Origin: Schmidtea nova
Lineage: Eukaryota
NCBI GenBank assembly: GCA_044892505.1
Contig: CM097882.1
Span: 161,696,001-161,760,000, forward strand
DNA length: 64,000 nt
Direction of reading: 5' to 3'
Within the stretch, counting starts at the first letter, position 1. Each line of letters begins with the position of its first letter. Below are positions 2,736 to 63,999 of this stretch, one piece after another. Below the pieces are notes generated by a model that worked only from the letters and a program-made list of their open reading frames with translations, was not told the DNA's origin and searched no databases. Both the position numbers and the translations under genes were made by a program.

Positions 2736-4651
2736 CATCTACCTACTTTTATATTAATATATATTTGTCACAGTTAAATTTTGATATAATAATTTAATAT
2801 AAGTAATTAATTTGATATAAATAATTTGAAAATTTTATATAAAATCTGATATTTGATATCAGATATAATTCGATATAATAATATATAATATTTATAAAAT
2901 ATAAATTGAATAATGAGAAGATATAATTGATTTAAGATATGGTAGGCCGTATATCGGGTAACGAAACGGAGGGTTTAGAATCTTTTTTTAAAAAAAAACA
3001 TATCCCTCTTGGTATACTATAAACTACGAATTTACATGGGCAGTCGAAATGTAAATGTAGATGTTTGTATGTGGTTGTAGTTGAATGAGACGAGACATAA
3101 TGACTGTGTATTCTATTGTTACTGTCGTGTTTGCGGGTGATTTGTGGATAGGTGGTCGGAACAATTGAGTGTTTGTGAGTGTGGTTAGACTGCTATGCTA
3201 ACTAACATGTCTGTGTGGAATTTCCAGTATGGTTTGCTTGTGTGTATATGATTGTTGAATGCTATTGAATGATACTGTGTATGTGTGTACATTGTGTTTT
3301 AATTAGAGGTTGCTTGTGTATTAGTATGGATGATGCTATTGAATGAAATGGACGTAATTTTTTGCAAATAGGGATGCGTTATGATTTTGAGATATCGTGG
3401 GGGTAGTTATAATATATTATATTTAACTTGTATAAAATATTTTTAGAATAATAATAATAATTTCCACAATACTTTTTATAAATTTCAAATTTATAATTTT
3501 ATGAAAGTTAAATAATGATAAAATTTATAATTTTTGTAATATATATTTTTGAATTTAAATTTTCATATTTTAAGGATATATATATTAATCATAAAATTTT
3601 TCTATAAAATCTCGAATTTGGAATTTTATAAAATGATAAAAATTATTAATATAATAATAAAATTTTGATTTATAATTTTTATGGGGTTTGATATAACTTT
3701 TGATTTACAAATTCTCTGGAATTTTATGAAATGATAAAATTTTTTATATAATAACAATATTTTCGGTTTATAATTTTTCGATATAGTTTTTGATGTGCAA
3801 ATTTCTAGGAAAATTTTTGGTTCACAATTTTTCATTATAAGAATTTTGTAATATAATAAAAAGTCAATTTTTTATTTTTTGATCAAAATGAAATAATAAT
3901 AAATTTCGAAATCCAAATAAGCATTCAATCTAAAAAGTTCTATACCCTGAATAAAAATAAAAATAAAATAAGTTATAAATTCTTCAAAGAATATTTTTCG
4001 ACATCGAGCAAAATGAACTTCGATTTCGTTGAGCATGAATTTCCCAACCAAAGTGCGCACGAATTTTTCGGGACGCTTCACTTAGGAACTTCAGGCTCCC
4101 GAAAACAAGGTTCACCGGAGAAAATTATTTAGGCGATAATGAGTTTAAATCAGATCAAATCAATACTTGTTTTCACAATTCGTTTCATTTCGTGATCATT
4201 ATACTAACTGAGCATTATTTCGAACAATTTTCTTTTCGACATTAGCTTCCAATTTTCTTTGCGTTTCTCTGATTCGTATTGGAGTTACAATATTTCTACA
4301 TCATCATCAAGTGGTTTTCCATCATATTTCAGGTAAAACGGTAATTCAAATGGTAATCTCTTTTTAATCTCTTTGTTATTTGTTGTTAATAATACTTTCA
4401 TCTCTTTCAGTTCTGAATCTGGGAAATTGATTTTAAATTTGCATTTCCTCGGGTCAACACTTGCCCGTTCCATTCGTTTCCATTTTCTCATAATTTTATC
4501 GAATTTTACTGGATACCAAGTGTATGATCGTCTATATTTCTCGATCTCTCTCACTATCAATTTCATTGTTTATATATTTTTACTAATTTCGAAAATCCAC
4601 TTTGCTAATTCAACTACTATTTCACTTTTTTTTGCACCATTTCTTAAGATA

Positions 4652-5435
4652 CGTGGTGCACCCAATAAGTCGTGAGACTAAAATAGAAAGACTTAAGATA
4701 TCAACACAAAACTTTGTATTAAGAACAAGCATGGTAAATAAGCATCATTTATCAAAATAATTTCTTTCTGCACTGACACAAATTTCCCAACGAATAACGA
4801 GGTTTTCGAAGGCATTTTTGAAGAATTCTGGAGGCTTTTCTCCCAGAAAACTCTATACGGCTGCTCTCAAATCATGTTTGTTGGCAAACACCTGGCCCCG
4901 CAGATGCTTCTTAAGATGATTAAACAGGAAAAAATCGGAGCGAGCCAAATCGGGGCTGTATGGTGGACGGGGAAGCAAATTGAGCCCGCAACGCTCAATT
5001 TTAGCCATGGAAACGCTGCTGGTGTGGATGGGAGCATTATCGTATAAAAAATAGAGATCACACACTCTGCTCTTGCGTCGTGCTTTCCCTGCTTGCTGCA
5101 CGATATTGGAGTAGTAAGAAATAGATAATAATACCATTGGCGTCCCAAAACACCGTCAGCATGAGAGCCTTTCGGTGGCAAGTTGAGGACCGCATTTTCA
5201 GTGAGCTGATTTCTCCTGGCAGTTTCCATTCTTGAGACTCTCTTTTAGATTCGGGGACATAAAGGGATAACGGTGTCTCGTCCACAGTGATGATATTATC
5301 AATGAAACAATAATGGATTATTAAAACAAAATACATTTTCTTTACCTATATATGTTGAAGTTTAAATATGTCTGTATCAATTTTTTTACTATTATTATTT
5401 TTATATTAGTCTCACGACTTATTGGGAGCACCACG
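4652..5435 (-). mobile_element. mariner (DD34D) element, internally deleted
   Basis: ~29-bp TIRs CGTGGTGCACCCAATAAGTCGTGAGACT / AGTCTCACGACTTATTGGGAGCACCACG flanked by TA. Transposase motifs ITVDETPL, YDNAPIH and PYSPDLARSDFFLF lie in frameshifted ORFs 5058-5336 and 4853-5137. Confidence 0.92.
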
Positions 5436-6469
5436 TATTAATTAATTGTTCAATCTTTCGTGCTTCTGTTTTTTCTGATTCTTCTGGATTTGTTAGTTCA
5501 TTCTTTTCTTTCGCATTTGGACTCATTTTTACTGCTTCGTCTATGATGATTGTTAATAATTTTTGTGTTACTGCTTCCCGTTTTGATCCGTATAGAGATA
5601 TTCTATTTTTCGCTTGTGCTACATGCATCATCGTCGCTTCTTCGTTCTTTTCTTTTTAGTTGTACCTCTGGATTAACTTCTTCTTTCTCCTTCATCCATT
5701 AATTTTATTGATATTTAAAATTCTTTATCTTTTAGGTCAATCTCCACATCTGATGTTTCATTTATCATATCGTTTACTTTTTCCATGATATTCTTTCAAA
5801 ATTCCATTTTATCTTTTGTGATGGTCTTTATCTAAAAAAGCTTCATCCATTATTTTATTGGCAAATAAGTGTGTGTATGTGTAAATAATTAGTGAAAGTA
5901 CCAGATATTTTTCATTAATATTTTAAAATGTCCAACTTAACATCAAATGGTAATTTTTGATTAATTTTTTACCATTTATTTTAGAAAAACTAATGCAAAT
6001 TTTAATTTCTGATACAGGGGAGCTTTATCAATATTTTTAAAAAGGTTTGATAAACTGGGCACCGGGAATTATACTATTGCAAATATAGATGTCAACCAGA
6101 ATAGATCTCAATGCTGTTTTATTGGATCATTTAAAGACGATTGATAAGGAACTATTGGTACTAATCTATCACGAACCTCGTGTATGTCGACGGGAAGGTT
6201 TCGTTGATCGTTCAGAGAACTATTACGTATGGATTCTAAAAAATAAGTTAAGAGAATATCATTTTTCAACCATTGTAGATAAATGTTAAAATATTGTTGA
6301 TAACTGTTCAACCAGTGATGAAAACTCATGATTAATAATATATGTTTAATTTGTTTTTATGTTCGATTTTTAATTACATGTATTTTATAGTATTTAATTT
6401 TGAAAAAAAATATAAGCTCAAGAGTAATAAATGAGTGATAAAAAGAGTAATACATGACAAATCCAATAC

Positions 6470-6730
6470 AGGTGCATTGCAATTCAGATCAGGGATTTGT
6501 TGAACTCATTCCAAAACGTTGATGCTGTGCTGCAGAAATAATTCCTTCATAATATGCGAAGTATGGATTGGTGCATTATCCTGTTGGAAACTGAGTCCCT
6601 CAATTTCTGGGAGAAAAGGAACAAGCTAATTTTTCAGAATGGCCACTGAGGTCATGTGATTGCCACACTTCAAAAGAGGACCAGTTCCACGAGCTGGGTA
6701 AAGACTCCAAAACATGATCTGAATATTCCT
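6470..6730 (-). pseudogene. Tc1-like (DD34E) transposase fragment
   Basis: Manual minus-strand translation gives IMFWS...FQQDNAPIHTSHIMKELF...E*VQQIPDLN. Confidence 0.7.
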
Positions 6731-8760: not shown

Positions 8761-11700
8761 AAATCTTAATTCAAGATTCATAACATATAAAATTCATCCT
8801 TTTATGAATCTTATTTATTTTCAAAAGACCTCTTTATAATATTTTAATTATTCATTTAAAAATAATAGAAAAACATGGCATCTCAATAAAACGATTTTAA
8901 CACAAATTAGTGGTTAATATACCAAGTATTAATGAAGCTATGTTGAAAAGTAATATAAAAAATCCTAATCTCATATCTTGATTCTAAATAGGGTAGCCAA
9001 CATACGTTCTGACGTCATTACTTACTGACGTCATTACTGACGTCATCATTAAAATTATTACTTCGCCACCAAACTAAAAACTTTTTCGTCAATAATAATA
9101 TTATTCATAACTTGTGTGAGCATCTAGTTTGATCTAATTGCATTTGTTGGGGTTGATATGAAATTATGGAAATAAAAGCGAGGAAAACCAAAAACATCGT
9201 TAGAAGCATCAAAATATTTACAGTACAAAAATTTATTAAAATTTTAGAAAAATTAAAAATTAACATTTTCCGAGGGAAACAAGTATGGTTGAACACAGAA
9301 AAGGAAAAAACTCAAATATAACAAATAAAAATTTAGTGAGGAGTCCTTAGAGAAAGTAATAAGAAAAAAAACAAATTTCAAATTAATTAATCCCATAATG
9401 GGAAGCCCGAGATGTGAAAAGAACCGAGCCCGAGTAATCAATAAAATATTTAATGTCATTTACAGTAAATTACCCAAAGAGCCGACCCGGGAAAATCACT
9501 CCGGAATTTCGGAAATAATTGTCAAACAGCAATCAAAATATTTTGACAGAGACAGTATAAAAAGGGGAGCTGTTGATAAATAAGGCAACTCTACTCAACA
9601 ACCTGATAACAGAGTCGGAACGTATACCATTCAATTACAATGAGTTAGAGGTTGGTAAAATCAGAAGAGAAACAAATTCTTGGTTAAAATATTAACCATA
9701 TTGACGTTCATAAAAGGTGATTTCCCTTGGGTAACCTGCCGTACGTCAATAAACCTTGTTACCGAAAAAGAAGTGCAAATATTGTGACAACCGTGATTTG
9801 TTTTTGAAAAGTCAATAAATTTGTTCTGGTTTTGGTTTTTGTCAATTGATTTATAAAGAAAGGACACATTGAGTCAGAGATTAACCGACTTATTGCATAA
9901 TAACCAAACACATGCATAGATAGCGGTGTACGACATTTAACTATATTTTTATTTCGCATTTCTTTTCATGACGCCATGACTACCAGTTTGAGAACCATAG
10001 GTATATGAAACGTCTTTGGATTTTATTAAAATCATATTATTTCTTAAATTTTAAATTAAATAAACCACCGTAAAATTGCTGTAAAATTTTCTTTATATTT
10101 TTTGTATTTATAAATTATTAACCGCTCCTAATATTTAAAATACTTAATGTATAAATGCAAATAACTACGATTAAGAATTACTTAATAAGTTCAGTTGAAA
10201 TAATTTAATAATAAATTTTCATAAGTAGCCGAGGAGAAATGTTCAAACGCTTCTATTCATCCTTTTTGGCGCGCTAAACCCCTGATAAACAATGGATTTA
10301 GAAAATAATTTGCAACGGGTTGCATATAGATTATATACATCTAGAAATTTCTCTTTTTTAATCTTAAGTAGGCTAAGTACTTCTCAAAAAAATGTTCAAT
10401 GGATCTTTAAAAGAGCATGATCCTGAGCTTGACCAAAATATGAAGAAAGTTTGGAATTTCTTATAATTTTTATAATGTTTTTATAGCTACTTTATAATAA
10501 CTTCTGAATATATTTTAATTTAAAAAAATTTAATTACAGTATTCTAGCTTACAAAAATATTCAATGCTTATATTTTCAATGTATGCTTTCAGGACTCCTC
10601 TATAGTTCCCCCCATTGAATATTGTATAACATTATAATTATAAGATATTATAATTTATTGTAACGGATTATGTTTTAATTNNNNNNNNNNNNNNNNNNNN
10701 NNNNNNNNNNNNNNNNNNNNNNNNNNNNNNNNNNNNNNNNNNNNNNNNNNNNNNNNNNNNNNNNNNNNNNNNNNNNNNNNNNNNNNNNNNNNNNNNNNNN
10801 NNNNNNNNNNNNNNNNNNNNNNNNNNNNNNNNNNNNNNNNNNNNNNNNNNNNNNNNNNNNNNNNNNNNNNNNNNNNNNNNNNNNNNNNNNNNNNNNNNNN
10901 NNNNNNNNNNNNNNNNNNNNNNNNNNNNNNNNNNNNNNNNNNNNNNNNNNNNNNNNNNNNNNNNNNNNNNNNNNNNNNNNNNNNNNNNNNNNNNNNNNNN
11001 NNNNNNNNNNNNNNNNNNNNNNNNNNNNNNNNNNNNNNNNNNNNNNNNNNNNNNNNNNNNNNAAAATAAATATTATTACGTGTAAGTAAACATAGTTCAT
11101 CTATTACTGAATACTTTTCATACAATATTCAATGGTTAAAGAGTAACTTTAAAAGAGCAAGTTCCGGAACCTATTTAATTAGAAAAATAGACCTTTATAA
11201 CATCAAATTTTAGATTATTTTGTATATAAAACTAATTTTACTGTATATTTTTAAAATATTTTAAAAACAAAAAAATAACAGATTACTTTTCTTATTTTCT
11301 TATAAATTTATAGCTTTCAAGTGGCAAGATATATTTACGGGAACAAGAAAGACTAGTTTTTTAATATAATACCCGGAAAAAATTTAAACAGTCTTAAAAA
11401 AATAACAAGAAAGAATTTAAGATGAAATAAAGAAATTTGTTAGATATCAGAAAAATTAAGTTATAAAATTATTTTACAAAAATAATAAAAAACCCGAAAC
11501 TAATATCCTGTGTGTCTTCCTTTGGCTTTGATGTTTATTTAATACTTAATGCTGCTACCNNNNNNNNNNNNNNNNNNNNNNNNNNNNNNNNNNNNNNNNN
11601 NNNNNNNNNNNNNNNNNNNNNNNNNNNNNNNNNNNNNNNNNNNNNNNNNNNNNNNNNNNNNNNNNNNNNNNNNNNNNNNNNNNNNNNNNNNNNNNNNNNN

Positions 11701-22194: not shown

Positions 22195-24210
22195 TGTAGC
22201 CAAGGGGATAAAGACGAATGACAAGAAGATTAAAGAAATTAAAGATGCAGAGATACCGACATTCGCTAAACAATTGAGGTCGTTCCTGGGTATGACTAAT
22301 TACTACAGGAAGTTCATAAAAGATTACGCAAAGATTGCTGAACCGTTGTACGCAGCCACTTCCGGATGCGGAAAATGATTAATTGGTCAGAAGATTGCAA
22401 TAAAAGTTTTGAATTGCTTAAAACAAAATTATGTGAAGCCTCAATCCTGGATTATCCAAGAGTAGAGGACAAATTTATTCAGGACATAGATGCCAGTTTT
22501 GGAGCCATTGGAGCCGTTCTGTGTCAAGAAAGAGGAGACCATACAGAGGTGGTTATTGAGTATGGGTCAAGATATTTAATGGCACACAAAAAAGGGTATT
22601 GTGTGACAAGGAACGAATTGCTTGCAATACACGAATATGTCTTATATTTCAGACAATATCTATAAGGGAAGACTTTTTTAGTACGAATAGATCACAAAGC
22701 ACTAGACTTCATGAGATACACCAAGAAACCAATAAGCCCACAGTTTACGACATAGCTAGCTGACCTTTCCGGATATGACTTCGACTTACAATATAGGAAA
22801 GGAGAATAACATGGGAATGCAGACGATATCTCAAGGATCAAGGGGATGTTATGAAAAGGGGAGTTATATAAATTGTTGATTGTTTAAATAATCTAAAGAG
22901 AGGTTTATCTTTAATGCCAGACACAACATGAAGACGCGAAAGAGGAAAAAACAAGAGTTAGACATATTAGTATATTACAGAAGACTTAATCAATGACAAG
23001 ACTATTACACATGTCAAGGGTATTACTGGGAAAAGAGAATGGAGAAAATCTGAACAAGAAGAAATTCCCTTTTAATTTGCTGAAGAACACAAAATTTGAA
23101 AACGTATTATTACTGCTTGAGAAAGACGGAAAGGATGTAGTATTAGTACCATTTGACTACACTAATACATTAGTCAAAGATATACATAGAGAAATGTGTC
23201 ATATTGGAGTGAAGAAATTACCAAGTTACATGAGCGATTTATTTTTTTGGCCGAATATGCAAGGAACAATTCAAAGCTGTTTAAGATCATGTGAAATATG
23301 TTGTAAACGGAAGATAGTACAAGAGAAAACAAAGGAACGACTGATACCGATAATGAGTTCAGATTTCTTAGAACAACTGGTTGTAGATATAGCCCACATG
23401 AAATCTCAGGGAAGTTACAGATATTTATTAGTTATTATTGTCCGTTTTAACAAGATGGTTAGCGTAACTGCACTGGAAACACAAGATGAGAAATCGTTGT
23501 TCAAAGCCATATTAGAGAAGTGGATATATAGATTCGGTAAACCACGAAGTATTTTATCAGACAAAGGTAAGAATTTCGACAGCATGTTCGTGAAGACACA
23601 TCTAGCAAAGTTAAGCATCGAACAACACCTGAGCTCACCATACCAACACCAATCGAATGGGCTGGTGGAAAGGACAATACGAACAGTCAGAGACTTATTA
23701 ACAACTTCTATATTCAGTGGATTAGGGGAGAAAATTGGGTAGATTTACTCCCACGTATAGAATTTTGTATCAATGCAACAACACAGAGTACAACAGGATT
23801 CTCACCATTCGAAATTGTTTTCGGGAGGAAAGTTAATCTCCATTCAACACTACCAAACAAATTTGAACGCAACCGAAATACGCAAGCAGGTTCTAGCAAA
23901 CAGTGAAAGAGCAGCAAAACGAATGAAAGAAACAGAGACGCATAGAAGGACGCATAGAACTTTTGAGATAGGGGAAAAAGTATTGGTTCAGAAAGAACCA
24001 CAAAATCGGGACAAAGATGGCCTTCAGTACGACGTTCCGTTCGTAATATCAAGATTTTTGTCAGAACACCAAGTGGAGCTGATCGATGGAGATTCAAAGA
24101 AACTTCGACTTATCGAATGGCTGAAGAGATGGGCAAATCCTTAAAGAAAGGGGGAGTTATATTAATTGTTGATTGTTTAAATAATCTAAAAAGAGGTGTA
24201 TTTTTAAATA
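22195..24210 (+). mobile_element. Ty3/Gypsy pol relic (RT thumb/connection, RNase H, integrase) with PPT
   Basis: LRSFLGMTNYYRKFI; DASFGAIGAVL...ELLAI; HHCC zinc finger (HREMCH...CEIC); integrase VVDIAH / SDKGKNF / SNGLVERTIRT; GPY/F-like tail; purine tract AAGAAAGGGGGAG at ~24145. Stops and frameshifts are present. Confidence 0.92.
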
Positions 24211-30847: not shown

Positions 30848-32377
30848 TCAATGTCGCTGATTCTGCTGAGGCGTTGGCCGCTGAGAATATACATTGTAAT
30901 CAATTCGGGCAGATTGAGTCGTTATGGGCTTCATACTTGGGGCGGATTTGGCATTTGCTGTCATGATTGACGAAGTGGCGTTACTAACGGGGGCAATAAT
31001 TTCATTGGTACTTTCGATGTCTAATAATTGACCTTCACCTCTGGCCAATACATCTCTGATTCTTGTGTCAAGTTCATTTTCATTTTGATATTCCGCAACA
31101 TATAATCTTTTATCTATATGTTTTGGAATAGCTTTAATTTCAGTATTCAATTGCGTTTCAATATTTTTTAATGCAAATCTATCATCATATGTGATTAAAT
31201 TAACAGCCACTCCTAAATGACCATATCGGCCCGATCGACCAATTCTATGTAGATATGTTTCGGCATATTTTGGAAAATCAAAATTAATCACAACGTTTAC
31301 TGATGGTATGTCTATACCCCTTGTAAATAAATCCGTACAAACCAAATTTCTACAATTTCCATTTCTAAATTCATGAAATACTCTATTTCTATAAACTTGA
31401 TTCATTTTAGCGTGAATATAATAACATGAGTAACCGAGATCCGTTATTTTTTTTGCTAATAATTCAACTCTTTGAGCAGTATTGCAGAAAATAATAGACT
31501 GATTAATTTGCAAACGAGAAAAAAGGGTATTTAAACAGTGGACTTTTTGACGCTCTTGAACATATGCATAATATTGTGAAATTCCTTTTAATGTTAGCTC
31601 ATCCATTAAATTAATTTCATACGGATCTCTCATGTGCTTTTCTAGAAATTGTTGAACAGATTGTGGAAATGTTGCAGAATACAACATAATCTGACGCTGA
31701 GCAGGTAATTTACTGATAATATAATCAATTACTTCTTCAAAATCTGCTGATAATAATTTGTCAGCTTCATCAATGACTAATATTTTACAAAAATTTGTGG
31801 ATACAATATCCCGTTTAATTAAATCATTAACGCGACCAGGAGTGGCTAAAATTATATGGACAGTTTGTTGGAGCCTAACAATATCATCCTTTAAACTTGT
31901 GCCACCCGTAGTAACCATTATCTTAGTTTCTGTGTGTTTAGCAAGTTCTGTACAAATTTGACTAGTTTGTAATGCTAATTCTCGAGTAGGAACTAAAATT
32001 ATTCCTTGGATTTGGTTAATGCTAGGGTCTATTTTTTCTAATAGTGGAATAGAATAAGCACCTGTTTTACCGGTTCCATTTTTAGCTCTGGCGAGAATAT
32101 CGCGACCGATTAATGAAATAGGAATGCTAGCTTCTTGAATAGGTGAAGGCATCTCCCATCCTTTTTCATAAATGCCTTTTAGTATATCTCGTTTTAGACA
32201 AAAATCGTCAAAAGAATTGCCTTGGGTTGCTGTTACATCAACCGTTTTAATACGATTATCTTTTTCAGGAATCTTAAGGTAGTTTTTCCATAATGCTTGA
32301 TCACTTTGTGTGTTAGATACACTGTCCCCACCTTGAATATTCATATTGACGTTGTTTCTATTCATAACTAAAATCAT
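30848..32377 (-). CDS. DDX6: DEAD-box RNA helicase DDX6/Me31B/Dhh1, intronless CDS
   Basis: [55 protein letters not shown]; 509 aa uninterrupted. Confidence 0.97.
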
Positions 32378-33096
32378 ACAAATATATAATGAAATTCAAA
32401 TATTTAAAAAACCGACATTTCTTTGTGTTACAAATACAATTTCGAAAACGAATCAATCAGATTTAAACAAATACAAAATATAAACAATGGAGATACATTA
32501 TACTAATCTTTAAATAATGTTATTTAATTTAATTAAATTAAAAAACTAAATTTATTCAATTGAAAATAAAACTTATAAAGAAAATTCTAAATTTTTAAAT
32601 AATTATTTTAGTTAATTATAGATTGCATTATACATTGCATTATAATAATTTATGAAATCATTAAAGAACTAAAAATTTAATTTATTTTTGTTTAAAAATT
32701 TCTAAAAAGATAAAATAAATTAAAATTTATTTATTTTTAATTTCATTAGAATAAGACATTAACAATATAATCTTTTGATAGTCACATATTATAAAAGTAA
32801 TTACAAGTAGAAATGCTGTTTTGTATTGAAAGAAATTTACAATCTCACTTTAAAAATTTTTAATAATACAAAAAATAATTTAAACCTACCAAAAAATTAA
32901 GTAATATGTATACCGGATTTAACATATATACACTAATATTATTATGCAACCAACCATAAAGTTCAAATATTCTTTACTGATTTATGAAATTCAACATAAT
33001 GTTGGGCTGAGGAAACCGAAAATAAATTCTGTTTAAATTTATCAAAAATTAAATATATACAAAAGGGAACAAGTTTAAAAAACGCACGATAAAGCT

Positions 33097-54118: not shown

Positions 54119-54400
54119 AGTAGGCAGTTATGTGCCATCTGACTCATCATTATTACGTAATTATTACGTAATATATTACATAACAAAAGACTATTACGTA
54201 ATCGATGGCCCCTCCCTCCCCCTTTTTTTTACACACACACAGACGATGAGTCATAAAAATTTTTTTTAAGGTCAAATTTTGAGGTTACTTTAAGGACATT
54301 TTAAGGTCAAATTTTGAGGACACATTAAGGACCAGTTAAGGTCAAGGTCATCATGATGTCAAGGTCATGCTAAGGTCAATTTTTAAGGTCAAAAATTCAA
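54119..54400 (+). repeat. Polinton terminal region with TTACGTAA x3, TGACTCA/TGAGTCA and AAGGTCA x7
   Basis: Read directly at 54140-54395. Confidence 0.75.
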
Positions 54401-54516
54401 AAACATAAAAAACATAAAATTTTACAAAACATTTTTTCAAAAACACAAAGTGAGAATTAATCAACATTTATTAATAAATACACATATATATATATATGAC
54501 AACAATGTTATTCCAA

Positions 54517-54960
54517 CTATGCAATTCTTGCGCTTTTTATCTTCCAAATTGGAGACATTGATTCTTTTTGATCGATTTTATATCCTTGGATGGATATATC
54601 AATAAACCAATTTTCATTATCCGTATGTTCAACTGATTGAAATGCATCATGAAATTCAGTGTTCCTGTTGTTGATGAATATAGTTTCATTGCAAGATAAT
54701 TTCTTGTTGATTTTCGTCAACACTTTATTGATTGCAACAACATCTTCTTTATAAATCTGACCAATCAAGTTGGAATATTGCGAAGTCGAAAGCTTTACCG
54801 GATTTGGGACCTTGAAAGAGATTTCGTTTACCAAGAAAAACATTTGGTAATCGTGAAACATCTGAACCGGTCGTAAATCAAATTTGTTTTGAGTTGATTT
54901 GTTATCGTTCCTAACTGGTTTCATTTTAATTGGACTCAATTTACTGAAAAGATTTTGCAT
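54517..54960 (-). CDS. Polinton hypothetical protein (147 aa), possibly an OB-fold ssDNA-binding protein
   Basis: Intact ORF with upstream TATA (GAGTATAAATA) and CCAAT motifs. The SSB idea rests only on the beta-rich C-terminal pattern DISIQGYKI...PIWKIKS. Confidence 0.6.
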   Translation of the reverse strand: MQNLFSKLSPIKMKPVRNDNKSTQNKFDLRPVQMFHDYQMFFLVNEISFKVPNPVKLSTSQYSNLIGQIYKEDVVAINKVLTKINKKLSCNETIFINNRNTEFHDAFQSVEHTDNENWFIDISIQGYKIDQKESMSPIWKIKSARIA

Positions 54961-55187
54961 TTTATGAACAATTCTATTTTTGTTTTCTTATTTATACTCG
55001 TCATCGTCTGTGTGCAGCCAATCAGATTCTTGCACATGTCTTGTAAATCAATTGCACATGTCTTGCTAATCAATTGGCTATGTATTAATAATTGACTTTG
55101 TATACATGTTGATGATTATCTACTGCAATTTCTTTCTATATATGTTGTAAGTTATTTACATATCTATCGCAATTTTATTGTCTATCC

Positions 55188-55256
<69 letters not shown>

Positions 55257-55418
55257 TACTAAAATTATTTTCTATTATAATATTCAATAAATATTCAACA
55301 TCAACATTTTATAAAAATTAATTTTAACTACAAAACATCTTTCATAACTCGTTTTAAGAAAATAAATACTTTATAAAATTTTGTACACAGATATCTTGCG
55401 TGTGTGTGTGTGTTTGAT

Positions 55419-55613
55419 ACAAATAAAAGTACGCATTGAACGCGCGTGAAACGCGCGTTCTTCTTCCCTTGTTGTTTGAGACAAATAAAAGTACGCATTG
55501 AACGCGCGTGAAACGCGCGTTCTTCTTCCCTTGTTGTTTAAGACAAATAACAGTATGCAATGAGCGCGCGTGAAACGCGCGTTCTTCTTCCCTTGTTGTT
55601 TAAGACAAATAAC
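55419..55613. repeat. Three 62-bp tandem repeats, each with the hairpin AACGCGCGT-GAA-ACGCGCGTT (third imperfect)
   Basis: Units start at 55419, 55481 and 55543. Confidence 0.92.
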
Positions 55614-56320: not shown

Positions 56321-59068
56321 TCACCCCCCCCGATAGTGCCCATATGCCAAAGATTTATTTTTAGCAACCCAGTTGCGTTTGTCATCGTTACATGTCAGTG
56401 CTGTTTTGTGATTATTTATGCTGTATAGTTGATGATTTTTGCTGATGATCCTAAACTGTGGAACTGTATATATTTTATTATTATTATAACAGTCAAAGTA
56501 ATTCGCATGATGAAGCCCCGCATCTTTCAATGTTATTCCCTTTGCTTTTATACATTCCTCATCACCCAGCAAGCTATAACATTTTGGTCGTAAAAATACC
56601 CACTCATCGTATTTGAGTCCTTTATTCTCGTCTTTGAATTTTCCAATGACAGAATCAAGGCTCCTCGAATACAATGGATGATTAGGGTCATAATTGGATG
56701 TATCTAATAATTCATCCCTAATCATCGCGGACAAAAGAATATTTAGTTTGCAGTTTTTGATTTCCAAAAAGAAGGAATCAGTGTCTCCAGCTACAATATT
56801 TATTACGCAGTTAAATTGTTCGCGATATTTTTGCAGCTCATTATATTGTAGCTGGTACATTCTCAGTTTAGATAGATCTAGTACAGTCTGACCGATGTAA
56901 CTAGGTCTATCTAAACACACTGATTGCTTCCTTAGCAAGACTGAAATCAAATTATGATCAATTTTGGTAGTACTACGGAAATATGGACTACTACAATATG
57001 TCATTAATTTTGTTGTAGAATTGCACAAACGTAAATTAATGCGTTTCTTTAAATTTTCAACAGTCTTGCCGTAAAGACTGTTGTTTAATAATTTATAAAA
57101 GTCTTTATCTATCTTTGTGGTGGATGAAGCTCTTAAATTTGTGTTGGTGTCCACATAATCTTTGAACAATTTACTTTGTGAGAAACGAATTGCTCTGTGT
57201 GTTTTTGTGACTATAACACCTAATTGTAAAAATATTTGTAAAAGTCTCCAATGGAGAACATAATTTGTTTTTGAATAATGTGTTAACATCAATTTTTCAA
57301 CCTTTGAACCAGGAGCACACATCTTTTCAGCGGCTAGTGGAAGATCATCCACGTAGTCGTGAATAGATGCCGGTATTTCTAAGTCTACTTCTATGGTATA
57401 ACCATAGCTAAGCAGACTTAGATCTACCGTAGTGCATTCAATTAATATATTATTTAATAATTGGTCATCCGTGACCCAAACAAAGTCTCCGTCCGGTAAA
57501 TTTTGAGATAAAGCCCAGCCATACAGGTTGTTGATATCTATATACAACAGCTCTGTATCTGAACTTGATTGAACAAAATGTTTATTTACGAAAGTTAACC
57601 CTCCTCTGATACCACCCTCAAAGAAGTTATACATCTCCATGTCAGTTAACAGTGTAATGGGATGTTCCAAAGTCATAAGAGCCGAACTCCAACTCATACC
57701 TGGAATTCCCAGAAAATTTAGTGGCTCGAGTTTATTGTGTGCGATACTCCTTGCACGAAATTGTTGGAAATAATCTGCCAAAAGAAATACGTCGAGTTTC
57801 AAATAGACCATCATGTAATCGAAAAGCGAATTACAATTGGTCTCTCTCCATATTCTTTTAGCCATTTCATAATCAGAATCGGTCACACCACTCCAAATTG
57901 GTGGTAATTCAGAAGTTGACCTCAAAACTTGCAACGATGTAGCAGCATCATATGGGAAAACTCCCTTAGATGTTATTATTGAACCCGTGAATTCAGATGA
58001 AGTCAAAGGAAATGATGTTAATGTTTTCACAGCTGTATCGAGAGATTTATTGACAAACTGATAAGAATCAATGAATTTTACAGTCAGTGAACCAATTCTC
58101 GCGTAAAGACTGAGAAATTTCTCACTAGTTACTGGGACACAGCTTATATTCCATTTCTCATATTTAGACAAGCCAAATTTGAGGATATGATGGAGATCAT
58201 ACCCTCTCAAATTGTGAAACACAACTGGCAGATTGTGACGAATTTGTCGCGAAAGATTGCATTTTGAGCAAGCTGCTCCAAGATACTTCCCGTTATAATG
58301 ATCATGATCCATAACAGGTTTCTCAATTAATTTTTTACATAAATAGCAATGAGTGGATGTACAAAAATTTTCAATGACCTCGTCGGTTAAAATAATAAGT
58401 TTATTAAAATTATTATAGTAAAAAGGTGATACAATATTTTTACTAATTTTCTCAATTTCATGGAGAAATTGATCTACACATTCCGATCCGTAAAAAGATT
58501 TATAAAATTTATCTCCAGTGAGATTATTAATACACAAAAGCCCTGCTGAAATGGGTAAGTGTTTCTGATAATATTTAGAGTCCTTAGGCAATATTGCTTC
58601 GAAATCAGCATAGATTACAAAGGGAGGAGTGACAGTTTTCTTCCAGTCATCAAATTCGAGAAGGGGATTTTCGGGTAAGGTATACAAGGTTGTACCTAAT
58701 TGGTTTTTATCGCAAAGACCACGATGACGAAGAAAAGTATCATTATTTCGAAAGCCGTTAAGACACCTAGGACACCATTTACAAGAAATTCTCACTTGGG
58801 TAATTGAAGCATTTTTACAATTTAAAAATTTGTTTATATCATTTATACCAGTGTAATGAAATTTATCTTTCTTTTCCAATAATAATAAATTTATAGGTGT
58901 GGGAGAAACAATCTTACTTTTATAAATTATGTCGATGAATGGATGTTTCAACACCTCGTCTTTATTTGTTAAATCAATTAATGCTTTTTCATTATACGAC
59001 AAAACATTAATTGATAACCCAGGATTTTGCAGTTCAAATTTAGCAATGTTCTGAAGTTTCATGGGCAT
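56321..59068 (-). CDS. polB: Protein-primed family B DNA polymerase, core (915 aa)
   Basis: ExoI YADFE, ExoII FHNLRGYD, KGVFPY, GIRGG, PolA YIDINNLY, PolB KLLNNSLYGK, PolC AGDTDS, GKFKDE, RPKCY; endonuclease VII-like insert C..C...DHDHYNGKYLGAACSKCN. Confidence 0.97.
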   Translation of the reverse strand: MPMKLQNIAKFELQNPGLSINVLSYNEKALIDLTNKDEVLKHPFIDIIYKSKIVSPTPINLLLLEKKDKFHYTGINDINKFLNCKNASITQVRISCKWCPRCLNGFRNNDTFLRHRGLCDKNQLGTTLYTLPENPLLEFDDWKKTVTPPFVIYADFEAILPKDSKYYQKHLPISAGLLCINNLTGDKFYKSFYGSECVDQFLHEIEKISKNIVSPFYYNNFNKLIILTDEVIENFCTSTHCYLCKKLIEKPVMDHDHYNGKYLGAACSKCNLSRQIRHNLPVVFHNLRGYDLHHILKFGLSKYEKWNISCVPVTSEKFLSLYARIGSLTVKFIDSYQFVNKSLDTAVKTLTSFPLTSSEFTGSIITSKGVFPYDAATSLQVLRSTSELPPIWSGVTDSDYEMAKRIWRETNCNSLFDYMMVYLKLDVFLLADYFQQFRARSIAHNKLEPLNFLGIPGMSWSSALMTLEHPITLLTDMEMYNFFEGGIRGGLTFVNKHFVQSSSDTELLYIDINNLYGWALSQNLPDGDFVWVTDDQLLNNILIECTTVDLSLLSYGYTIEVDLEIPASIHDYVDDLPLAAEKMCAPGSKVEKLMLTHYSKTNYVLHWRLLQIFLQLGVIVTKTHRAIRFSQSKLFKDYVDTNTNLRASSTTKIDKDFYKLLNNSLYGKTVENLKKRINLRLCNSTTKLMTYCSSPYFRSTTKIDHNLISVLLRKQSVCLDRPSYIGQTVLDLSKLRMYQLQYNELQKYREQFNCVINIVAGDTDSFFLEIKNCKLNILLSAMIRDELLDTSNYDPNHPLYSRSLDSVIGKFKDENKGLKYDEWVFLRPKCYSLLGDEECIKAKGITLKDAGLHHANYFDCYNNNKIYTVPQFRIISKNHQLYSINNHKTALTCNDDKRNWVAKNKSLAYGHYRGG

Positions 59069-59763
59069 ATCTTGTGGGTCAAAACGAAGAGAAGAAAGAT
59101 TATAAGAAGAAGGTTGATTGCGTAAATCATCATCAATTTCGTCATATTTTATGACTGATAAAACACTATATAGGAAACATAGTTCATCGGTGTTAATAAC
59201 ATTAACTATGCAGTTTTTACGTTTAAGTGAAGTCGGCGTATCAATAAATTGTCAGCCGCTTAATCGTGAAATTTGTGAAAATTTAGTTAATACAAAACTA
59301 ATATATTCAATTTTATTAATTACCCAATTTGAACCCTTTTCATTCATTTGGGTTATTTTTTCATTAAGAAGTGTAATACCTTCATCAATGAAAGTATTAC
59401 TCCAAAGCCGGGCAGAATTTGAGATGATGAATGATTGATATTCATTATCCTTCTCAAATTCTACCTTTATACAAAATTGAATTTTAACTGATTGCATTTT
59501 TATAACAACATCATTTAATTTATTTAAAAGGATAGTCGGAACAGATAAAGATTTAAAGTTGAAACGCGAGACATCCATCTTTATAATTATATGCAATTTA
59601 TTTAAATCAGATTCAATCTCTACAAGACCAGATCCAACCTGATTAATACAAGGTATTATTTCTTCATCAGACGAAATGACAATTTCCTCATCACTGATGA
59701 CAATAACTTCTTCGTCATCACTGATTTCAACTATTTCAATTAATTTGTTGGGAACGCAGTCCA

Positions 59764-59809
<46 letters not shown>

Positions 59810-60285
59810 TAATAATTTGGGAACGCAGTCCACATTAATATTATTATTATTATTACTTAATAATTTGGGAACGCAGTCCACATTATCGGTCATTGTTTCC
59901 TTATTGTTTGTGGTTTTAATTAATTTTGTGGGAACACAATCCACATTATCATTTAGTTTTCTTTTATTTATTTTGATGGGATCGCAGTCCACATTAGTTT
60001 TTGATGAAATATATTCTTTTGGTAAATTTTGTTGTATATTAGTTTGTAAAACATTTTTTGTAATATTAATTGAGTTAAAAAGATTCTTTTTTGATGGTTT
60101 AAATTGAGATAGATGATTTTTATGATTATTGTAAATTTCTGTATAACCTATTGTTTCTTCAGTTTTACATGTGGGACATATTAGGTGGGTGACACTGTTA
60201 TATTTTAGCGAATAGTACTTTTCCATAACTACATGACAGTTATTATTATGAAAAGTACTATTGCAATATGCAGTATAAAGACGGC
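59069..60285 (-). CDS. N-terminal part of the same pPolB frame, separated from the core by one TGA (59252-59254)
   Basis: EKGSNWVINKIEY...RLSG*QFIDTPTSLKRKNCIVNVINTDELCFLYSVL resembles the conserved Polinton PolB N-terminal block and is in frame with 59068 (183 nt apart); splice acceptor TTTTAATTCAG at 60286. Confidence 0.8.
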
Positions 60286-60835
60286 CTGAATTAAAATACA
60301 ATAATAAAAATATTTATCAAAATATTTTAAAATAACAATTATTTTATTCTATTACTAAACTAATATTGAATTTATTNNNNNNNNNNNNNNNNNNNNNNNN
60401 NNNNNNNNNNNNNNNNNNNNNNNNNNNNNNNNNNNNNNNNNNNNNNNNNNNNNNNNNNNNNNNNNNNNNNNNNNNNNNNNNNNNNNNNNNNNNNNNNNNN
60501 NNNNNNNNNNNNNNNNNNNNNNNNNNNNNNNNNNNNNNNNNNNNNNNNNNNNNNNNNNNNNNNNNNNNNNNNNNNNNNNNNNNNNNNNNNNNNNNNNNNN
60601 NNNNNNNNNNNNNNNNNNNNNNNNNNNNNNNNNNNNNNNNNNNNNNNNNNNNNNNNNNNNNNNNNNNNNNNNNNNNNNNNNNNNNNNNNNNNNNNNNNNN
60701 NNNNNNNNNNNNNNNNNNNNNNNNNNNNNNNNNNTTACTAATAAGATATCTTATATTTAAATTATAAAAACATTAACACTTAATAAAAACTTAAAATTTA
60801 ATAAAAATTTATATAAATAAATAAAAATTACTTAC

Positions 60836-61302
60836 ATTTTTGTCTACCATTAAATCGCTCATCAAACACATCATTGATTTCTGCTCCATTTTCATATTTA
60901 TTTTCTACATTTTCTTGCTTATTTACAAGATTATTTTCTTCATTTTGGTGATTATTTTCTGCTATAAAATTAATTGTAAATTAATAAAGAAAATATCAAA
61001 TATGAAATTATTACCATCTATATCCACATTTAGTTTCTCATTTCAACTTGCAGCATAGAACTGATTTGAGAATTCGACATTTCTAACTAAAATGTAAATA
61101 ATAATAATTTATTATTTTTAAAAATATAAAATTTTTTACCATTTGCATTTTTATTTTCGATCATAGGGACGTTGACGACATTCATTGTAGAATTAAAGTT
61201 AACTGAAAAATTATATATTTATATAAAAATAATTAATAAAATAGATTAAAAATTACCATTTTTCTTCATCATATTTTTGATATCTCTTGAAAGGTTCTCC
61301 AT
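60836..61302 (-). CDS. Four putative 5' mini-exons (61302-61257, 61202-61140, 61086-61015, 60961-60836), probably of the pPolB gene; one TGA at 61043-61045
   Basis: GT-AG introns of 54, 53 and 53 nt, all phase 1. Exon 4 ends at a GTAAGT donor, and the acceptor at 60286 is also phase 1 (a gap lies between). Confidence 0.65.
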
Positions 61303-61655
61303 TTTTCTTTGTAAAATAATAATTTTAAAATGTTTTTAAATGATTTGTTTTAATTGTGATGAAATAATGAAAACATATAGTATATATATCACGTTTATTA
61401 CAAACTTTATTACAAACTTTATTCAAGAGCCAATCAGATTCGATATAGGGTAGAAAAAGTATGTTACGCTCACACACACATAGTATTTGTATTAACATAC
61501 ACACACACATGTTATACACTATGTAACGTTATATATATAATATTTACTAACACATGATTAATCATGCACGATGAATGCAAGGGTCATGCATGATAACTGC
61601 AGGGGTCATGCATCTTTTATTGCAAAACAATTATTTTTAATTAAAAAAAAAAAAT

Positions 61656-62075
61656 TTAAATTTTCAAATAATCTAAAACCCCCACCAAGCAACCTTTATA
61701 AGCACAGTTTGTGTGATCCCGATATGGACATGAAATATTGTCAGGAAAAACTTCTACTTCCTTAACATTATACTTAATTAATTTTAGGGACGGAAAATAT
61801 CTTTTTAAAACAGTAAGTTTATCTTGATCAGTCACATAGAAAATCGCATCAACATCTTCAATTTCTTTCGAAATACATGTTGGACAAAAGTGGTCTTCCC
61901 CTTCATACCATTCTAATCTGTCATGTTCACCAATTCCAGCCCAAAAAGGAACATCATTATATATCCAATATCTTGGTCGAAAAATATTATTAACATTCAT
62001 AATACATAATTCTTTAATAACAATCCCTCCGCAATTATCATTATAACCATAAATATCAATAAAATAACAAGTCAT
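61656..62075 (-). CDS. Polinton hypothetical protein (139 aa), DnaQ/DEDD-fold-like N-terminus with Cys/His C-terminus
   Basis: FIDIYG...IKEL...LEWYEG...C.P.RDH.NCA motif pattern, recalled from insect-virus/Polinton orphan families. Confidence 0.55.
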   Translation of the reverse strand: MTCYFIDIYGYNDNCGGIVIKELCIMNVNNIFRPRYWIYNDVPFWAGIGEHDRLEWYEGEDHFCPTCISKEIEDVDAIFYVTDQDKLTVLKRYFPSLKLIKYNVKEVEVFPDNISCPYRDHTNCAYKGCLVGVLDYLKI

Positions 62076-62106
62076 TTTTCTAATAATATTTATTAAACTA
62101 AATTGT

Positions 62107-62490
62107 TTATACTTTTAACATAGAATTAAGCCATGCAAGGCAATATTGTCCACATGTAATTGTTAATGGATGCTGATACCGAATTTTATTATATACAATC
62201 GGTTTACCCAATGTTTGCAGTTTACTAACTAATAAACCGGGATAATAACATCCGAAGGGATCGAATGCATATACATTGCTTGGTTTCACATATACAGCAA
62301 TCCAATGTTCTCCGCCTAGAGTAGATGATTGAGTATTGACGACTATGGCTTGGTTGACATCTAAATAAGGGATTTTATCTAATGGATAGACTCCAATAAA
62401 TTGATTTCCTAACAACTGTTTTCCAATTCGATTAACCTGAATAGAACTATATAAATAAATATATTTGATAAATAATAAAACTTACTCCAT
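62107..62490 (-). CDS. Adenain-like (C5) cysteine protease, 2 exons (62490-62486, 62446-62107), 114 aa
   Basis: GGEHW (His), FDPFG (Asp), YQ (oxyanion Gln), TCGQYC (Cys). Splicing out 62485-62447 gives MDSIQVNRIGKQLLGNQFIGVYP. Confidence 0.88.
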
Positions 62491-62557: not shown

Positions 62558-63778
62558 TCAAACTAATACTGTTCGATTAGCAGTAATTTGAATTTCATTT
62601 TCAAAAACTCCATATATTATTACATGTACTGGTTCTTCAATGGCTTTAGCAAACTTGATATCCAATCTCAAATTTCCATTTTGAGGTAATTGACTTTGAT
62701 TTAAATCGAAATCCGGAGCCAAAACAAATGTAAAGAATGGATATTTGTTTTTAAAATCAGCAAGATTTATACCACAATTTAAGTTCTTATCTAAATATCC
62801 CATATTTCTGACCATCGATTGCATATATGTAGTACAATAATTATCATTTTCGAAATCTTGAGTATATGTTTCTCGATAATCAGTGTTTTTCGATAAAGAT
62901 AGAGAAGTTACATTGAAATGTTTGAATTTCGAACTTGATGCAGTATATGATCCATTGTATTGAGTTTCACTTTGAAATGCGACCAGAATAAAATTTGGCA
63001 TTCTTCGATCTCCAAATATTTGTTCCTTGTAGAAAGATGATGCACCTTTACCAATAGCAAATTGTACTATTTCTTTGGTTTTCATTGGATAAATAGCGTG
63101 TTTTGAGTTAAGTCCAACTTGATGTCCAGCTAATACAGAGGGTTCAACGCGAACGCGACGAATCATTAACTTTGCATCAACTAATTGACATTTTGGTGCA
63201 CCGTTTTTTGAATAAAGTGATAGTGAAGAATCAGATCGCTTCAGTCTGATGTGAACATTGACACCTGGTAATAAATATTTCGGTTGATCCATGAAATCCA
63301 GTTGTAGAGATGAACACATTGTAAATAGCTTTGAGCCTTTGATCCACGCTTTTCTCTCGTCAGAATCTCCATATCCCATTGGAGTAAGACAAATTTCTTT
63401 AGTATCACCATTATAATTTAAAATAGTTTCGATTATTGCTTTGTGTGCATATGTATTGTTTCCACCTTCAATTTTGATATTATTAAAACCAAGAATCGCG
63501 TCCTTGAATAGAGTATGAAACATAAAATTGTTTGGTATAACATCATCAGTTGCAGACAAATCTTTTTTATCGGCATTTACAACTTTTATTTGAACTGTTA
63601 GTAAAGTATCATTCAAATCCAAATATTCAGATTGAGATCCGTTAATGTAAAATTCCACATCATTTCTACCGTCTGTAATAGAATTCATGGGAAATACTTC
63701 TTCAAATGCACCATATTCAATGACTGCTTGAGGAGATGGTCGGTCGAAAAGACATAATTCAGATTTACCACAAATCAT
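62558..63778 (-). CDS. Double jelly-roll major capsid protein (Polinton/adintovirus hexon), 406 aa, intact
   Basis: KSELCLFDRPSPQ...EF.ING...YLDLNDT.L...QPKYLLPGV...GNLRLDIKF pattern of Polinton MCPs; lies adjacent to the protease gene. Confidence 0.9.
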   Translation of the reverse strand: MICGKSELCLFDRPSPQAVIEYGAFEEVFPMNSITDGRNDVEFYINGSQSEYLDLNDTLLTVQIKVVNADKKDLSATDDVIPNNFMFHTLFKDAILGFNNIKIEGGNNTYAHKAIIETILNYNGDTKEICLTPMGYGDSDERKAWIKGSKLFTMCSSLQLDFMDQPKYLLPGVNVHIRLKRSDSSLSLYSKNGAPKCQLVDAKLMIRRVRVEPSVLAGHQVGLNSKHAIYPMKTKEIVQFAIGKGASSFYKEQIFGDRRMPNFILVAFQSETQYNGSYTASSSKFKHFNVTSLSLSKNTDYRETYTQDFENDNYCTTYMQSMVRNMGYLDKNLNCGINLADFKNKYPFFTFVLAPDFDLNQSQLPQNGNLRLDIKFAKAIEEPVHVIIYGVFENEIQITANRTVLV

Positions 63779-63999
63779 TTTGCAAATATAATTCCATGTC
63801 CTTTCATTCGATTGTTTATATACCTTCGATGCTTTATACGTCTAGGCCCCACTTGTTCCGGTTCAGGTTCAGGCTCATCTTTATTAATCATACTTGCAAC
63901 ATTAGGAATCATACTAGTCACAGTAGGCAGTACTTTGCCAATAGCAGACAAGGCATTTGTTTTCAATGATCGTAGTATTTTCTGATCATTCATGATCAC
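63775..63999 (-). CDS. Small virion-protein candidate upstream of MCP (may start beyond the window)
   Basis: Amphipathic helix ALSAIGKVLPTVTSMIPNVASMI, basic patch, MKGH/G motif; the stop overlaps the MCP start (ATGA). Confidence 0.6.
   Translation of the reverse strand: MIMNDQKILRSLKTNALSAIGKVLPTVTSMIPNVASMINKDEPEPEPEQVGPRRIKHRRYINNRMKGHGIIFAK

Follow-up and report, generated by a model that had tools for sequence, protein, structure and literature searches.

Analysis of a 64,000-nt stretch of a Schmidtea nova contig (CM097882.1, positions 161,696,001 to 161,760,000; hereafter the window) uncovered a Polinton from a young, high-copy family in which the family B DNA polymerase of the protein-primed type (pPolB), the integrase, and the adenain-type protease all appear to be interrupted by introns, although such genes were previously described as intron-free. 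Judged from sequence, it is highly probable that replication genes of this element carry host-spliced introns, that one of these was gained within a Cys codon, and that leaders upstream of it have been exchanged between families. Because polymerase, integrase, and protease are all interrupted by host-style introns, the element likely needs the host splicing machinery.

Gene set of the element and its family

The window locus is a complete Polinton of about 15.7 kb belonging to family A, which has at least 150 copies in the genome; sister copies are 97–99% identical to one another, and by hand count about 85 of 150 still have a frame open over 1,300 codons or more. The flanks, read directly, carry the 6-bp target-site duplication TCTTTG on both sides of ends reading AGTAG...CTACT. 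These AG...CT termini, the long terminal inverted repeats (TIRs), and the 6-bp duplication are those of Polintons/Mavericks. Beyond the window, in locus L021, lie a probable minor capsid ORF, the integrase, the ATPase, an ORF resembling TBP, and the right-hand TIR.

54119–55378, no strand: left TIR, 1,264 nt, beginning AGTAG, 98.5% identity between element ends
61656–62114, minus strand: 152-aa ORF, no Pfam match
62107–62490, minus strand: adenain-type protease, with a predicted 5-nt exon (62490–62486), a 39-nt phase-2 intron (62485–62447), and exon 2 from 62446
62558–63841, minus strand: 427-codon ORF, likely the major capsid protein, a label taken from size and position
L021 1818–1775: integrase intron, 44 nt, GT-AG, predicted, inside a conserved motif
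L021 4590–5851, beyond the window: right TIR copy

A search with the window polymerase found 1,317 homologues, many with PF03175 and one named adintovirus PolB. The protein shares 32% identity with the PolB of a coral adintovirus, and its translation displays the catalytic motifs of protein-primed family B polymerases that characterize Polintons/Mavericks; a Pfam search of this protein gave no match to PF03175. The accompanying hallmark genes are a retroviral-like integrase (PF00665, E 7.7e-08, in exon 1, and a chromo domain in exon 2), a packaging ATPase (PF04665, E 1.5e-06), and the protease (PF00770, E 9.4e-06). Capsid-sized ORFs of 427 and 353 codons stand in the expected place and have no Pfam match. 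No relative was found among the viral contigs searched, and a PDB sequence search returned nothing useful. The phylogenetic tree comes from a quick search, with branch support by SH-aLRT only.

Predicted exon structure of the polymerase gene

The polymerase reads leftward from an ATG at 61302 through four predicted mini-exons into one large exon, as follows.

61343–61435, minus strand: likely promoter, by motif matches only, with a GATTGG (61435), a TATA-like element (61388), and TCATT (61370 and 61343)
61257–61302, minus strand: predicted exon 1, 46 nt, ATG at 61302
61203–61256, minus strand: predicted intron 1, 54 nt, GT-AG, phase 1
61140–61202, minus strand: predicted exon 2, 63 nt
61087–61139, minus strand: predicted intron 2, 53 nt, GT-AG, phase 1
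61015–61086, minus strand: predicted exon 3, 72 nt, with a TGA at 61045–61043 in the window copy
60962–61014, minus strand: predicted intron 3, 53 nt, phase 1, with a second in-frame AG 3 nt further
60836–60961, minus strand: predicted exon 4, 126 nt, or 114 nt from an alternative in-frame donor at 60847
60286–60835, minus strand: predicted intron 4, 550 nt, phase 1, GTAAGT donor, CAG acceptor, microsatellite core, splitting a Cys codon
56321–60285, minus strand: large pPolB exon, with a Cys/His motif, a linker, terminal-protein-like and OTU-like regions, and exonuclease and polymerase motifs; stop at 59254–59252
About 60285–60110, minus strand: Cys/His motif at the start of the large exon, followed by a low-complexity linker
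About 59610–59270, minus strand: terminal-protein-like domain in the large exon
59179, minus strand: OTU-like Cys in the large exon

The motifs upstream of 61302 are ones that we take to be CCAAT-box-like, TATA-like, and initiator-like; their layout is similar upstream of the polymerases of three further families (B, C, and D). The initial annotation had proposed this start codon, the 46/63/72/126-nt exons, the 54/53/53-nt GT-AG introns, and the acceptor at 60286, and these coordinates are correct. Its claim of phase 1 at every junction is borne out, since the cumulative leader coding length of 307 nt places all four junctions in that phase. The large exon, described there as open except for a single TGA, reads as 344 plus 977 codons around the TGA at 59254–59252, and none of 28 sister copies has a stop at that codon; for exon 3, whose TGA had also been flagged, 17 of 19 sisters have an open frame. 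Both window stops are lesions at the level of the individual copy.

A two-state segmenter that ignores reading frame was trained only on 18 hand-picked candidate host chaperonin introns (44–62 nt, median 50), themselves chosen from sequence alone, without RNA verification; the three mini-introns fall within this size range, as had been claimed. Applied to the window, the segmenter returned exactly exons of 46/63/72/126 nt and introns of 54/53/53/550 nt, and it recovered an identical arrangement in 16 of 18 sisters whose loci include the large-exon start, the two deviations being one in-frame alternative donor and one false extra intron. The three short introns score 14.5–19.0, with a GC content of 2–8% against 26–32% in the exons, and false calls in plain ORF (14 in 8,501 nt) score 7.0–12.3. 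When letters were shuffled within exons, none of 20,000 shuffles was stop-free in register, although this is a weak null. The GT-AG ends and host-like size and composition of the predicted introns are those of U2-type introns. Elsewhere the segmenter performed less well: it chose the final acceptor of family B (an AAG/GT boundary) in none of the 10 runnable loci of that family, gave the integrase a 63-nt intron that breaks the frame, and was wrong at loci L099 and L087. Junctions that it missed were placed through homology or by hand, with the frame known. Because family-A sisters are so nearly identical, splice-site conservation among them says little. Four sequencing runs from one study were judged to be DNA because their contigs continue through the introns, and among the joints listed none of 15 is a predicted junction. 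Taken together, the sequence signals make it very likely that the predicted introns are spliced.

A gene or coding exon within intron 4 was rejected, and with it the possibility raised earlier that the mini-exons splice to a gene inside the N-gap. In sisters, the interval before the large exon spans 517–1,191 nt of mostly TTA microsatellite (GC 4–6% in 17 of 18, 11% in one).

Translated, the mini-exons would place some 102 residues rich in Asn and Glu ahead of the Cys/His motif, which is present in all 11 aligned sequences and, going by the motif, is likely zinc-binding. Sister copies have the terminal-protein-like region in one frame with the polymerase, and a Ser and a Trp within it are nearly invariant in alignment A2. 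Candidate vOTU motifs, DELCFLYS and KFHY, are seen in the window translation. A structure model of an intron-free relative (L080, folded in place of the window protein; pLDDT 83) gave weak matches to Y-family polymerases (E ~2e-3) and matches to adintovirus proteins (E 4e-6). A terminal protein encoded by the mini-exons was rejected; the terminal-protein-like domain sits in the large exon. Among 15 candidate longer proteins, none includes the 80 residues with which the large exon begins, which is weak evidence.

Probable intron gain and leader exchange among families

The last leader intron splits a Cys codon, and all seven relatives without this intron have Cys at the position. The split codon and the position of intron 4 are common to four families (A, B, C, and D), with a T/GTAAGT donor (exon T) and an AG/GY acceptor boundary that recur in families B, C, and D. 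Related elements bear introns at other sites or none, and an intron-free integrase family is present in the same genome. The intact Cys in intron-less relatives, the intron-free integrase family, and the variable intron sites support the suggestion made in the initial annotation that a virus-like element gained introns. Metagenome contig L091 carries a visible tandem exon duplication (53 of 66 nt alike); the window mini-exons are only weakly alike, two of six pairs beating shuffles, which is too little to establish duplication in family A. Introns 1–3 of the window, compared with each other, are no more alike than shuffles; on this comparison among the three, an introner origin was rejected.

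In families B, C, and D the upstream exons cannot be aligned to the window leader, intron 4 is kept, and the polymerase bodies are 64–69% identical to that of the window at the protein level. Leader exons measure 52/54/105 nt in 8 of 9 pattern matches from 18 family-B loci and 7/60/240–261 nt in both of two from family C. Family D combines a UTR intron with one coding leader exon; of its 13 pattern matches (20 loci), 10 keep the frame and are open, and the other three are out of frame. Over 3.65 kb, the bodies of families B and C share 96% identity although their leaders cannot be aligned, and loci L157 and L163 join a B-like leader (88–89%) to a D-like body (95–97%), the switch falling within the long intron; one further locus matches L157 across the whole junction. 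Near-identical bodies with different leaders, and B leaders on D bodies, indicate that whole leaders appear to have been exchanged by recombination in intron 4. The chimeric loci themselves may be dead recombinants formed after insertion.

The integrase and protease are interrupted as well. No integrase frame longer than 180 aa occurs in any of the 150 family-A matches, and of 29 copies checked, 28 have a 44-nt GT-AG segment. Its removal restores the motif QTDLGKEF, found uninterrupted in family E and in metagenome contig L085; the ends of this intron resemble the flanking exon ends. For the protease, a 5-nt exon and a 37–39-nt intron recur in families A, C, and E and in L085. A 49-nt phase-0 intron called by the segmenter was rejected here because the 5-nt exon arrangement fits all four lineages.

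One alternative is that the polymerase starts at an internal Met (60226) on an unspliced or other-start transcript, and that the mini-exons are a small gene of their own or a piece captured from the host. Gene callers place the start of P0001 and P0004, the closest database proteins, at the matching Met, and the leaders match nothing between families. A start there, however, would remove both the first and second Cys and the His of a motif that all 11 aligned sequences possess, and the Met looks structural because six of seven relatives that start further upstream have it. The four unrelated leaders all join the same split codon in phase, and the integrase and protease need splicing regardless; we therefore regard this start as improbable. 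Less probable still, and very unlikely, are chance AT-rich decay or post-insertion insertions, such as introner-like ones, in dead copies. The window copy does have two stops, the splice model does give false calls in AT-rich ORFs, and introners in dinoflagellate Polinton-like elements are described as mostly inserted after integration (available text of 10.1101/2025.03.18.643946). Against this, the interruptions run through the whole of a family that amplified recently, their positions are conserved across diverged families, and the window introns are dissimilar to one another.

Splicing could also be regulated, with exon skipping, the alternative exon-4 donor, or a retained intron yielding several N-termini or turning the polymerase off by cell type, a reading in line with the alternative N-termini raised in the initial annotation. 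We hold this to be possible at a low probability, and it would supplement the preferred reading rather than replace it. All internal exons are multiples of three, an in-frame alternative donor (114-nt exon 4, junction Cys lost) and a tandem acceptor exist, and any retained intron meets a stop within 2–17 codons. The need to keep the frame would nonetheless be enough to explain same-phase exons, only one leader exon codes in family D, and leaders are unconserved between families. What the DNA does display is N-termini that differ from family to family and the apparent exchange of entire leaders.

In the preferred reading of host-spliced introns with exchanged leaders, the host spliceosome would remove the short AT-rich GT-AG segments, making the element dependent on nuclear transcription and host splicing. 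An ancestor of the families in this genome would have gained a phase-1 intron a few codons past the start, in the Cys codon; exons later added or duplicated upstream would have been restricted to multiples of three, a constraint that would produce the all-phase-1 series and make alternative splicing unnecessary as an explanation. Recombination in the long AT-rich intron would then exchange promoter-plus-leader modules between families. The spliced product would consist of the Asn/Glu-rich tail, the likely zinc-binding motif, the terminal protein, the OTU-like protease, the exonuclease, and the polymerase; if the published TP-vOTU model applies, this tail would remain part of the terminal-protein piece that is bound to the DNA ends. 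Since the tail looks weakly constrained, the swapped promoter and intron may matter more than the peptide. A more speculative and rather doubtful extension is that the phase-1 pPolB intron acts as an exon-shuffling socket, in which cassettes are swapped, alternative splicing picks leader exons, and tails on the genome-linked terminal protein set the place and time of replication or the encounter with host defence. Were this true, splicing would be a control point through which the nucleus and cell type of the host constrain these viruses.

Relation to known systems and significance

The element resembles animal Polintons/Mavericks (adintoviruses) in its TIRs, 6-bp duplication, pPolB, rve integrase, ATPase, adenain-type protease, and capsid-sized ORFs. 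Unlike in those elements, pPolB, integrase, and protease are here interrupted family-wide, so the intronless core genes of the descriptive literature, a trait outside the gene-set definition, are absent. The adenovirus E2B region belongs to a related protein-primed replication system that likewise uses host splicing. Its polymerase shares the upstream exon of pTP. The start of pTP lies in a predicted 9-nt upstream exon according to the available text of PMC9499273 and PMC2397415, an exon resembling the 5-nt protease exon here. The adenovirus terminal protein is a separate gene with a leader of a few codons, whereas here the terminal-protein-like region lies in the polymerase frame behind up to four coding mini-exons, whose introns are host-sized and which vary between integrated-element families.

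Core genes are described as intronless in vertebrate Mavericks (PMC8097293) and nematode Mavericks, the latter having introns only in cargo genes (10.1101/2022.07.12.499685), in the available portions of both sources. The order of a putative TP-like Ser beside Gly before the last strand, followed by a candidate OTU-like Cys/His region, resembles the TP-vOTU-exonuclease-palm architecture of pPolB in the available parts of 10.1101/2024.03.18.585575, from which the window protein differs in its extra Cys/His motif and spliced low-complexity leader before the terminal-protein domain; the strings 'intron', 'splic', and 'zinc' are absent from the main text of that source. Dinoflagellate Polinton-like elements also contain spliceosomal-type introns, which the available text describes as repeated mobile introners, about 90% consistent with insertion after integration (10.1101/2025.03.18.643946), whereas those here are mutually unrelated, fixed in amplifying families, and common to lineages. 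Ginger1 transposons, whose integrase-type transposase has 1–4 GT-AG introns (available text of PMC2836005), illustrate that DNA transposons can gain introns, although they are cut-and-paste elements without polymerase or capsid genes. Searches of openly available articles and preprints turned up no description of animal Polintons whose core genes are spliced, and the accessible portions of 10.1101/2023.08.22.554363, PMC6431247, PMC8532177, PMC8502044, PMC12220804, and PMC5718144 do not mention such introns. PMC8532177 does report that Polintons become de-repressed on piRNA-pathway knockdown in a planarian.

Polinton surveys call genes with ORF finders that ignore introns, as described in the accessible text of 10.1101/2025.04.19.649669. 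Such pipelines would cut these polymerases short and treat the integrase as defective, with the risk that families still active are taken for fossils. In this lineage, intron gains in mobile genes are recent enough to be dated, sister families without introns occur in the same genome, phase 1 is strongly favoured, an exon duplication can be seen, and leaders are swapped; with these features, the origin of new spliceosomal introns and exons becomes testable. Should splicing prove necessary, transcription of these elements would have to take place in the host nucleus, which would bear on whether Polintons behave as transposons or as viruses.

Predicted splicing of the window polymerase gene

The polymerase gene lies within a complete Polinton of ~15.7 kb, which runs from 54119 to position 5851 of L021 (the DNA beyond the window's right edge) and has 1,264-nt terminal inverted repeats (TIRs), a TCTTTG target-site duplication, and protease, integrase, ATPase, and two capsid-sized ORFs. 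Judged from its sequences, this family (A) is young: at least 40 scored matches to the leader, the mini-exons upstream of the large polymerase exon, are 99-100% identical, and at least 150 scored large-exon matches are 97-100% identical. By hand count, about 85 of 150 scored large-exon matches remain open for 1,300 codons or more.

Other features in and around the element (window positions unless L021 or locus L022 is named)
22990-23742 (+): retroelement integrase fragment
30848-32395 (-): DEAD-box helicase ORF, single frame, 515 aa
54517-54987 (-) and L021 4981-5451 (+): two copies of a 156-codon ORF, one within each TIR; Pfam gave no convincing match
55411-55612: 62-nt unit repeated three times in tandem along the inner side of the left TIR; every unit holds a CGCG-rich near-palindrome
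59740-60000 (-): large-exon linker with NVDCVP-like repeat units between poly-Asn runs, whose length varies among copies
L021 3542-3916 (+): TBP-like ORF (PF00352, E 5e-09), broken here by an AT dinucleotide run; also at 10318-10779 (-) of the metagenome relative L085; TBP-like genes are named in a figure legend of PMC8502044
L021 ~4199-4553 (+): small ORF adjoining the right TIR; its first exon is predicted to span 22 nt and to be followed by a phase-1 intron of 54 nt
L022 ~1900-6700 (+): decayed family-B polymerase copy ~6 kb past the element's right end, with the same spliced-leader layout

The initial annotation proposed a polymerase assembled from mini-exons, and its structure was borne out. 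From an ATG at 61302, exons of 46, 63, 72, and 126 nt are separated by three GT-AG introns (54, 53, and 53 nt), and the last acceptor is a CAG whose final base is 60286. Every junction is phase 1, and exon 3 and the large exon hold one stop each. Exon 3 is open in 17/19 sister copies and the main-exon stop recurs in 0/28; thus, the window copy is broken while family A is intact. The suggestion that the mini-exons might instead join another gene in the assembly gap did not hold, as there is no room for one: in 18 sisters the interval ahead of the large exon spans 517-1,191 nt of very AT-rich sequence with a TTA microsatellite.

A splice and composition model that ignores reading frame was trained on 18 candidate introns (44-62 nt, median 50) picked from host chaperonin genes. 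This model returned the exact reported structure at the window locus and an identical one in 16/18 sister loci. It is not very specific, since 8,501 nt of plain ORF yielded 14 false positives (scores 7.0-12.3); by their scores of 14.5-19.0, the three short window introns rise above this noise. Stop-free exon shuffles numbered 0 of 20,000. These sequence analyses argue that the predicted mini-exon structure is a real feature. The sequencing runs compared with this locus behave as DNA. Alternative splicing of the leader, which would be compatible with host-spliceosome-dependent expression of the core genes, is possible but rather unlikely.

Introns across families and metagenome relatives

Because the sisters are too alike to reveal selection, diverged Polinton families from the same genome were compared. 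The last polymerase intron splits a T|GC codon, and at this codon families B, C, and D share its donor and carry an AG|GT acceptor. In all seven relatives that lack the intron, the start of the gene lies a few residues further upstream, and a Cys fills the split-codon column of a Cys/His-rich motif. A polymerase beginning at the internal Met 60226 would have half of this conserved motif deleted, and we consider such a start very improbable. Against the shared intron, the frame-blind model failed to choose the weak family-B acceptor, which was placed by homology.

Leader layouts in families B, C, and D
Family B: 52/54/105 nt; 8/9 pattern matches among 18 loci
Family C: 7/60/240-261 nt; 2/2
Family D: UTR intron, then a single coding exon; 10/13 matches among 20 loci are in frame and open

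Conservation family-wide and across families speaks against a chance pattern or introner insertion, which is extremely unlikely.

Other core genes also contain candidate introns. None of the 150 scored family-A matches has an uninterrupted integrase; the interruption, a 44-nt GT-AG segment, is present in 28 of 29 copies checked. This segment falls within a motif, QTDLGKEF, which another family of this genome and L085 carry unbroken; the frame-blind model favoured an out-of-frame acceptor here. Recent amplification of a family whose integrase is interrupted seems hard to explain without splicing, although family E may instead supply integrase help in trans. At the protease start, families A, C, and E, as well as L085, have an exon of 5 nt followed by a phase-2 intron of 37-39 nt.

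Polymerase 5′ ends were read for 11 of 75 metagenome loci, with L093 left unclassed. Four (L080, L084, L088, L090) have no coding intron there, whereas between one and four short introns (1-4) lie at other positions in L105, L099/L085, L091, L087, and L092. Up to 21 polymerase intron positions, not independent and with a shared intron counted once, are all phase 1; six (in L099 and L087) were placed by hand after model miscalls. Two adjacent L091 exons are identical at 53/66 nt, a tandem exon duplication. L087 (718) and L092 have a common 43-nt phase-1 intron deep in the gene, right after the terminal protein (TP)-like domain. In a quick 42-row tree with SH-aLRT support only, families A-D form one clade (95), and a neighbouring clade mixes intron-free and intron-bearing contigs, which fits repeated intron gains, with losses possible.

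Leaders, predicted product, and partial elements

The leaders of families A-D do not align with one another. Polymerase bodies of families B and C are 96% identical over 3.65 kb and carry unrelated leaders. In two chimeric loci (L157, L163) the leader is of B type and the body of D type, the switch falling within the long intron; the L157 junction is matched throughout by one further locus. The shared phase-1 intron therefore appears to serve as a site at which promoter-plus-leader cassettes are exchanged.

The four mini-exons are predicted to contribute ~102 residues (99 whole codons, including 25 Asn and 17 acidic). A structural model of the intron-free relative L080 contains a confident alpha/beta domain, with weak matches to Y-family polymerases and adintovirus proteins, as expected for the pPolB terminal protein described in 10.1101/2024.03.18.585575. 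Since this domain corresponds to the large exon, the leader would be a low-complexity tail ahead of the Cys/His motif, which likely binds zinc. If the published model of cleavage at the OTU-like protease region (vOTU) holds, the tail would remain on the DNA-linked piece.

Partial elements also occur in this genome. A 13.4-kb palindrome (L247/L248, C1 ~253,453,070-253,466,460) carries polymerase alone in each arm (arms 99.7% alike), and a 14.2-kb palindrome (L245/L246, C1 ~216,887,049-216,901,280; arms 99.8% alike) carries an ATPase, an intron-free integrase, capsid-sized ORFs, and a protease in each arm, with polymerase absent. Both families form inverted pairs at many places and end in AGTAG, their ends being otherwise without similarity; they are possibly a two-part Polinton system. 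At L064 (C2 246,203,400-246,213,399), family-B polymerase copies stand head to head in a palindrome whose arms are 96% alike, and the sequence between them lacks any ORF of at least 70 aa. Separately, a C-terminal chaperonin segment (PF00118, profile positions 346-488) occurs in dozens of scattered copies, often ~4.6 kb apart, which suggests a captured fragment within a repeat.

Known systems and a proposed mechanism

Unlike the window family, with predicted introns in polymerase, integrase, and protease, Mavericks of vertebrates (PMC8097293) and nematodes (10.1101/2022.07.12.499685) have core genes described as intronless. Searches of freely accessible main texts turned up no account of splicing in the core genes of animal Polintons. 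Nearby precedents are the spliced adenovirus E2B region, where the first exon of pTP is predicted to be 9 nt long (PMC9499273, PMC2397415); introners in dinoflagellate Polinton-like elements (10.1101/2025.03.18.643946); and introns in Ginger transposases (PMC2836005).

The comparisons very probably point to Polinton core genes whose expression would depend on the host spliceosome. A founding phase-1 intron would have arisen near the start codon, exons would then have been added upstream with the frame preserved, and leaders would be exchanged by recombination.
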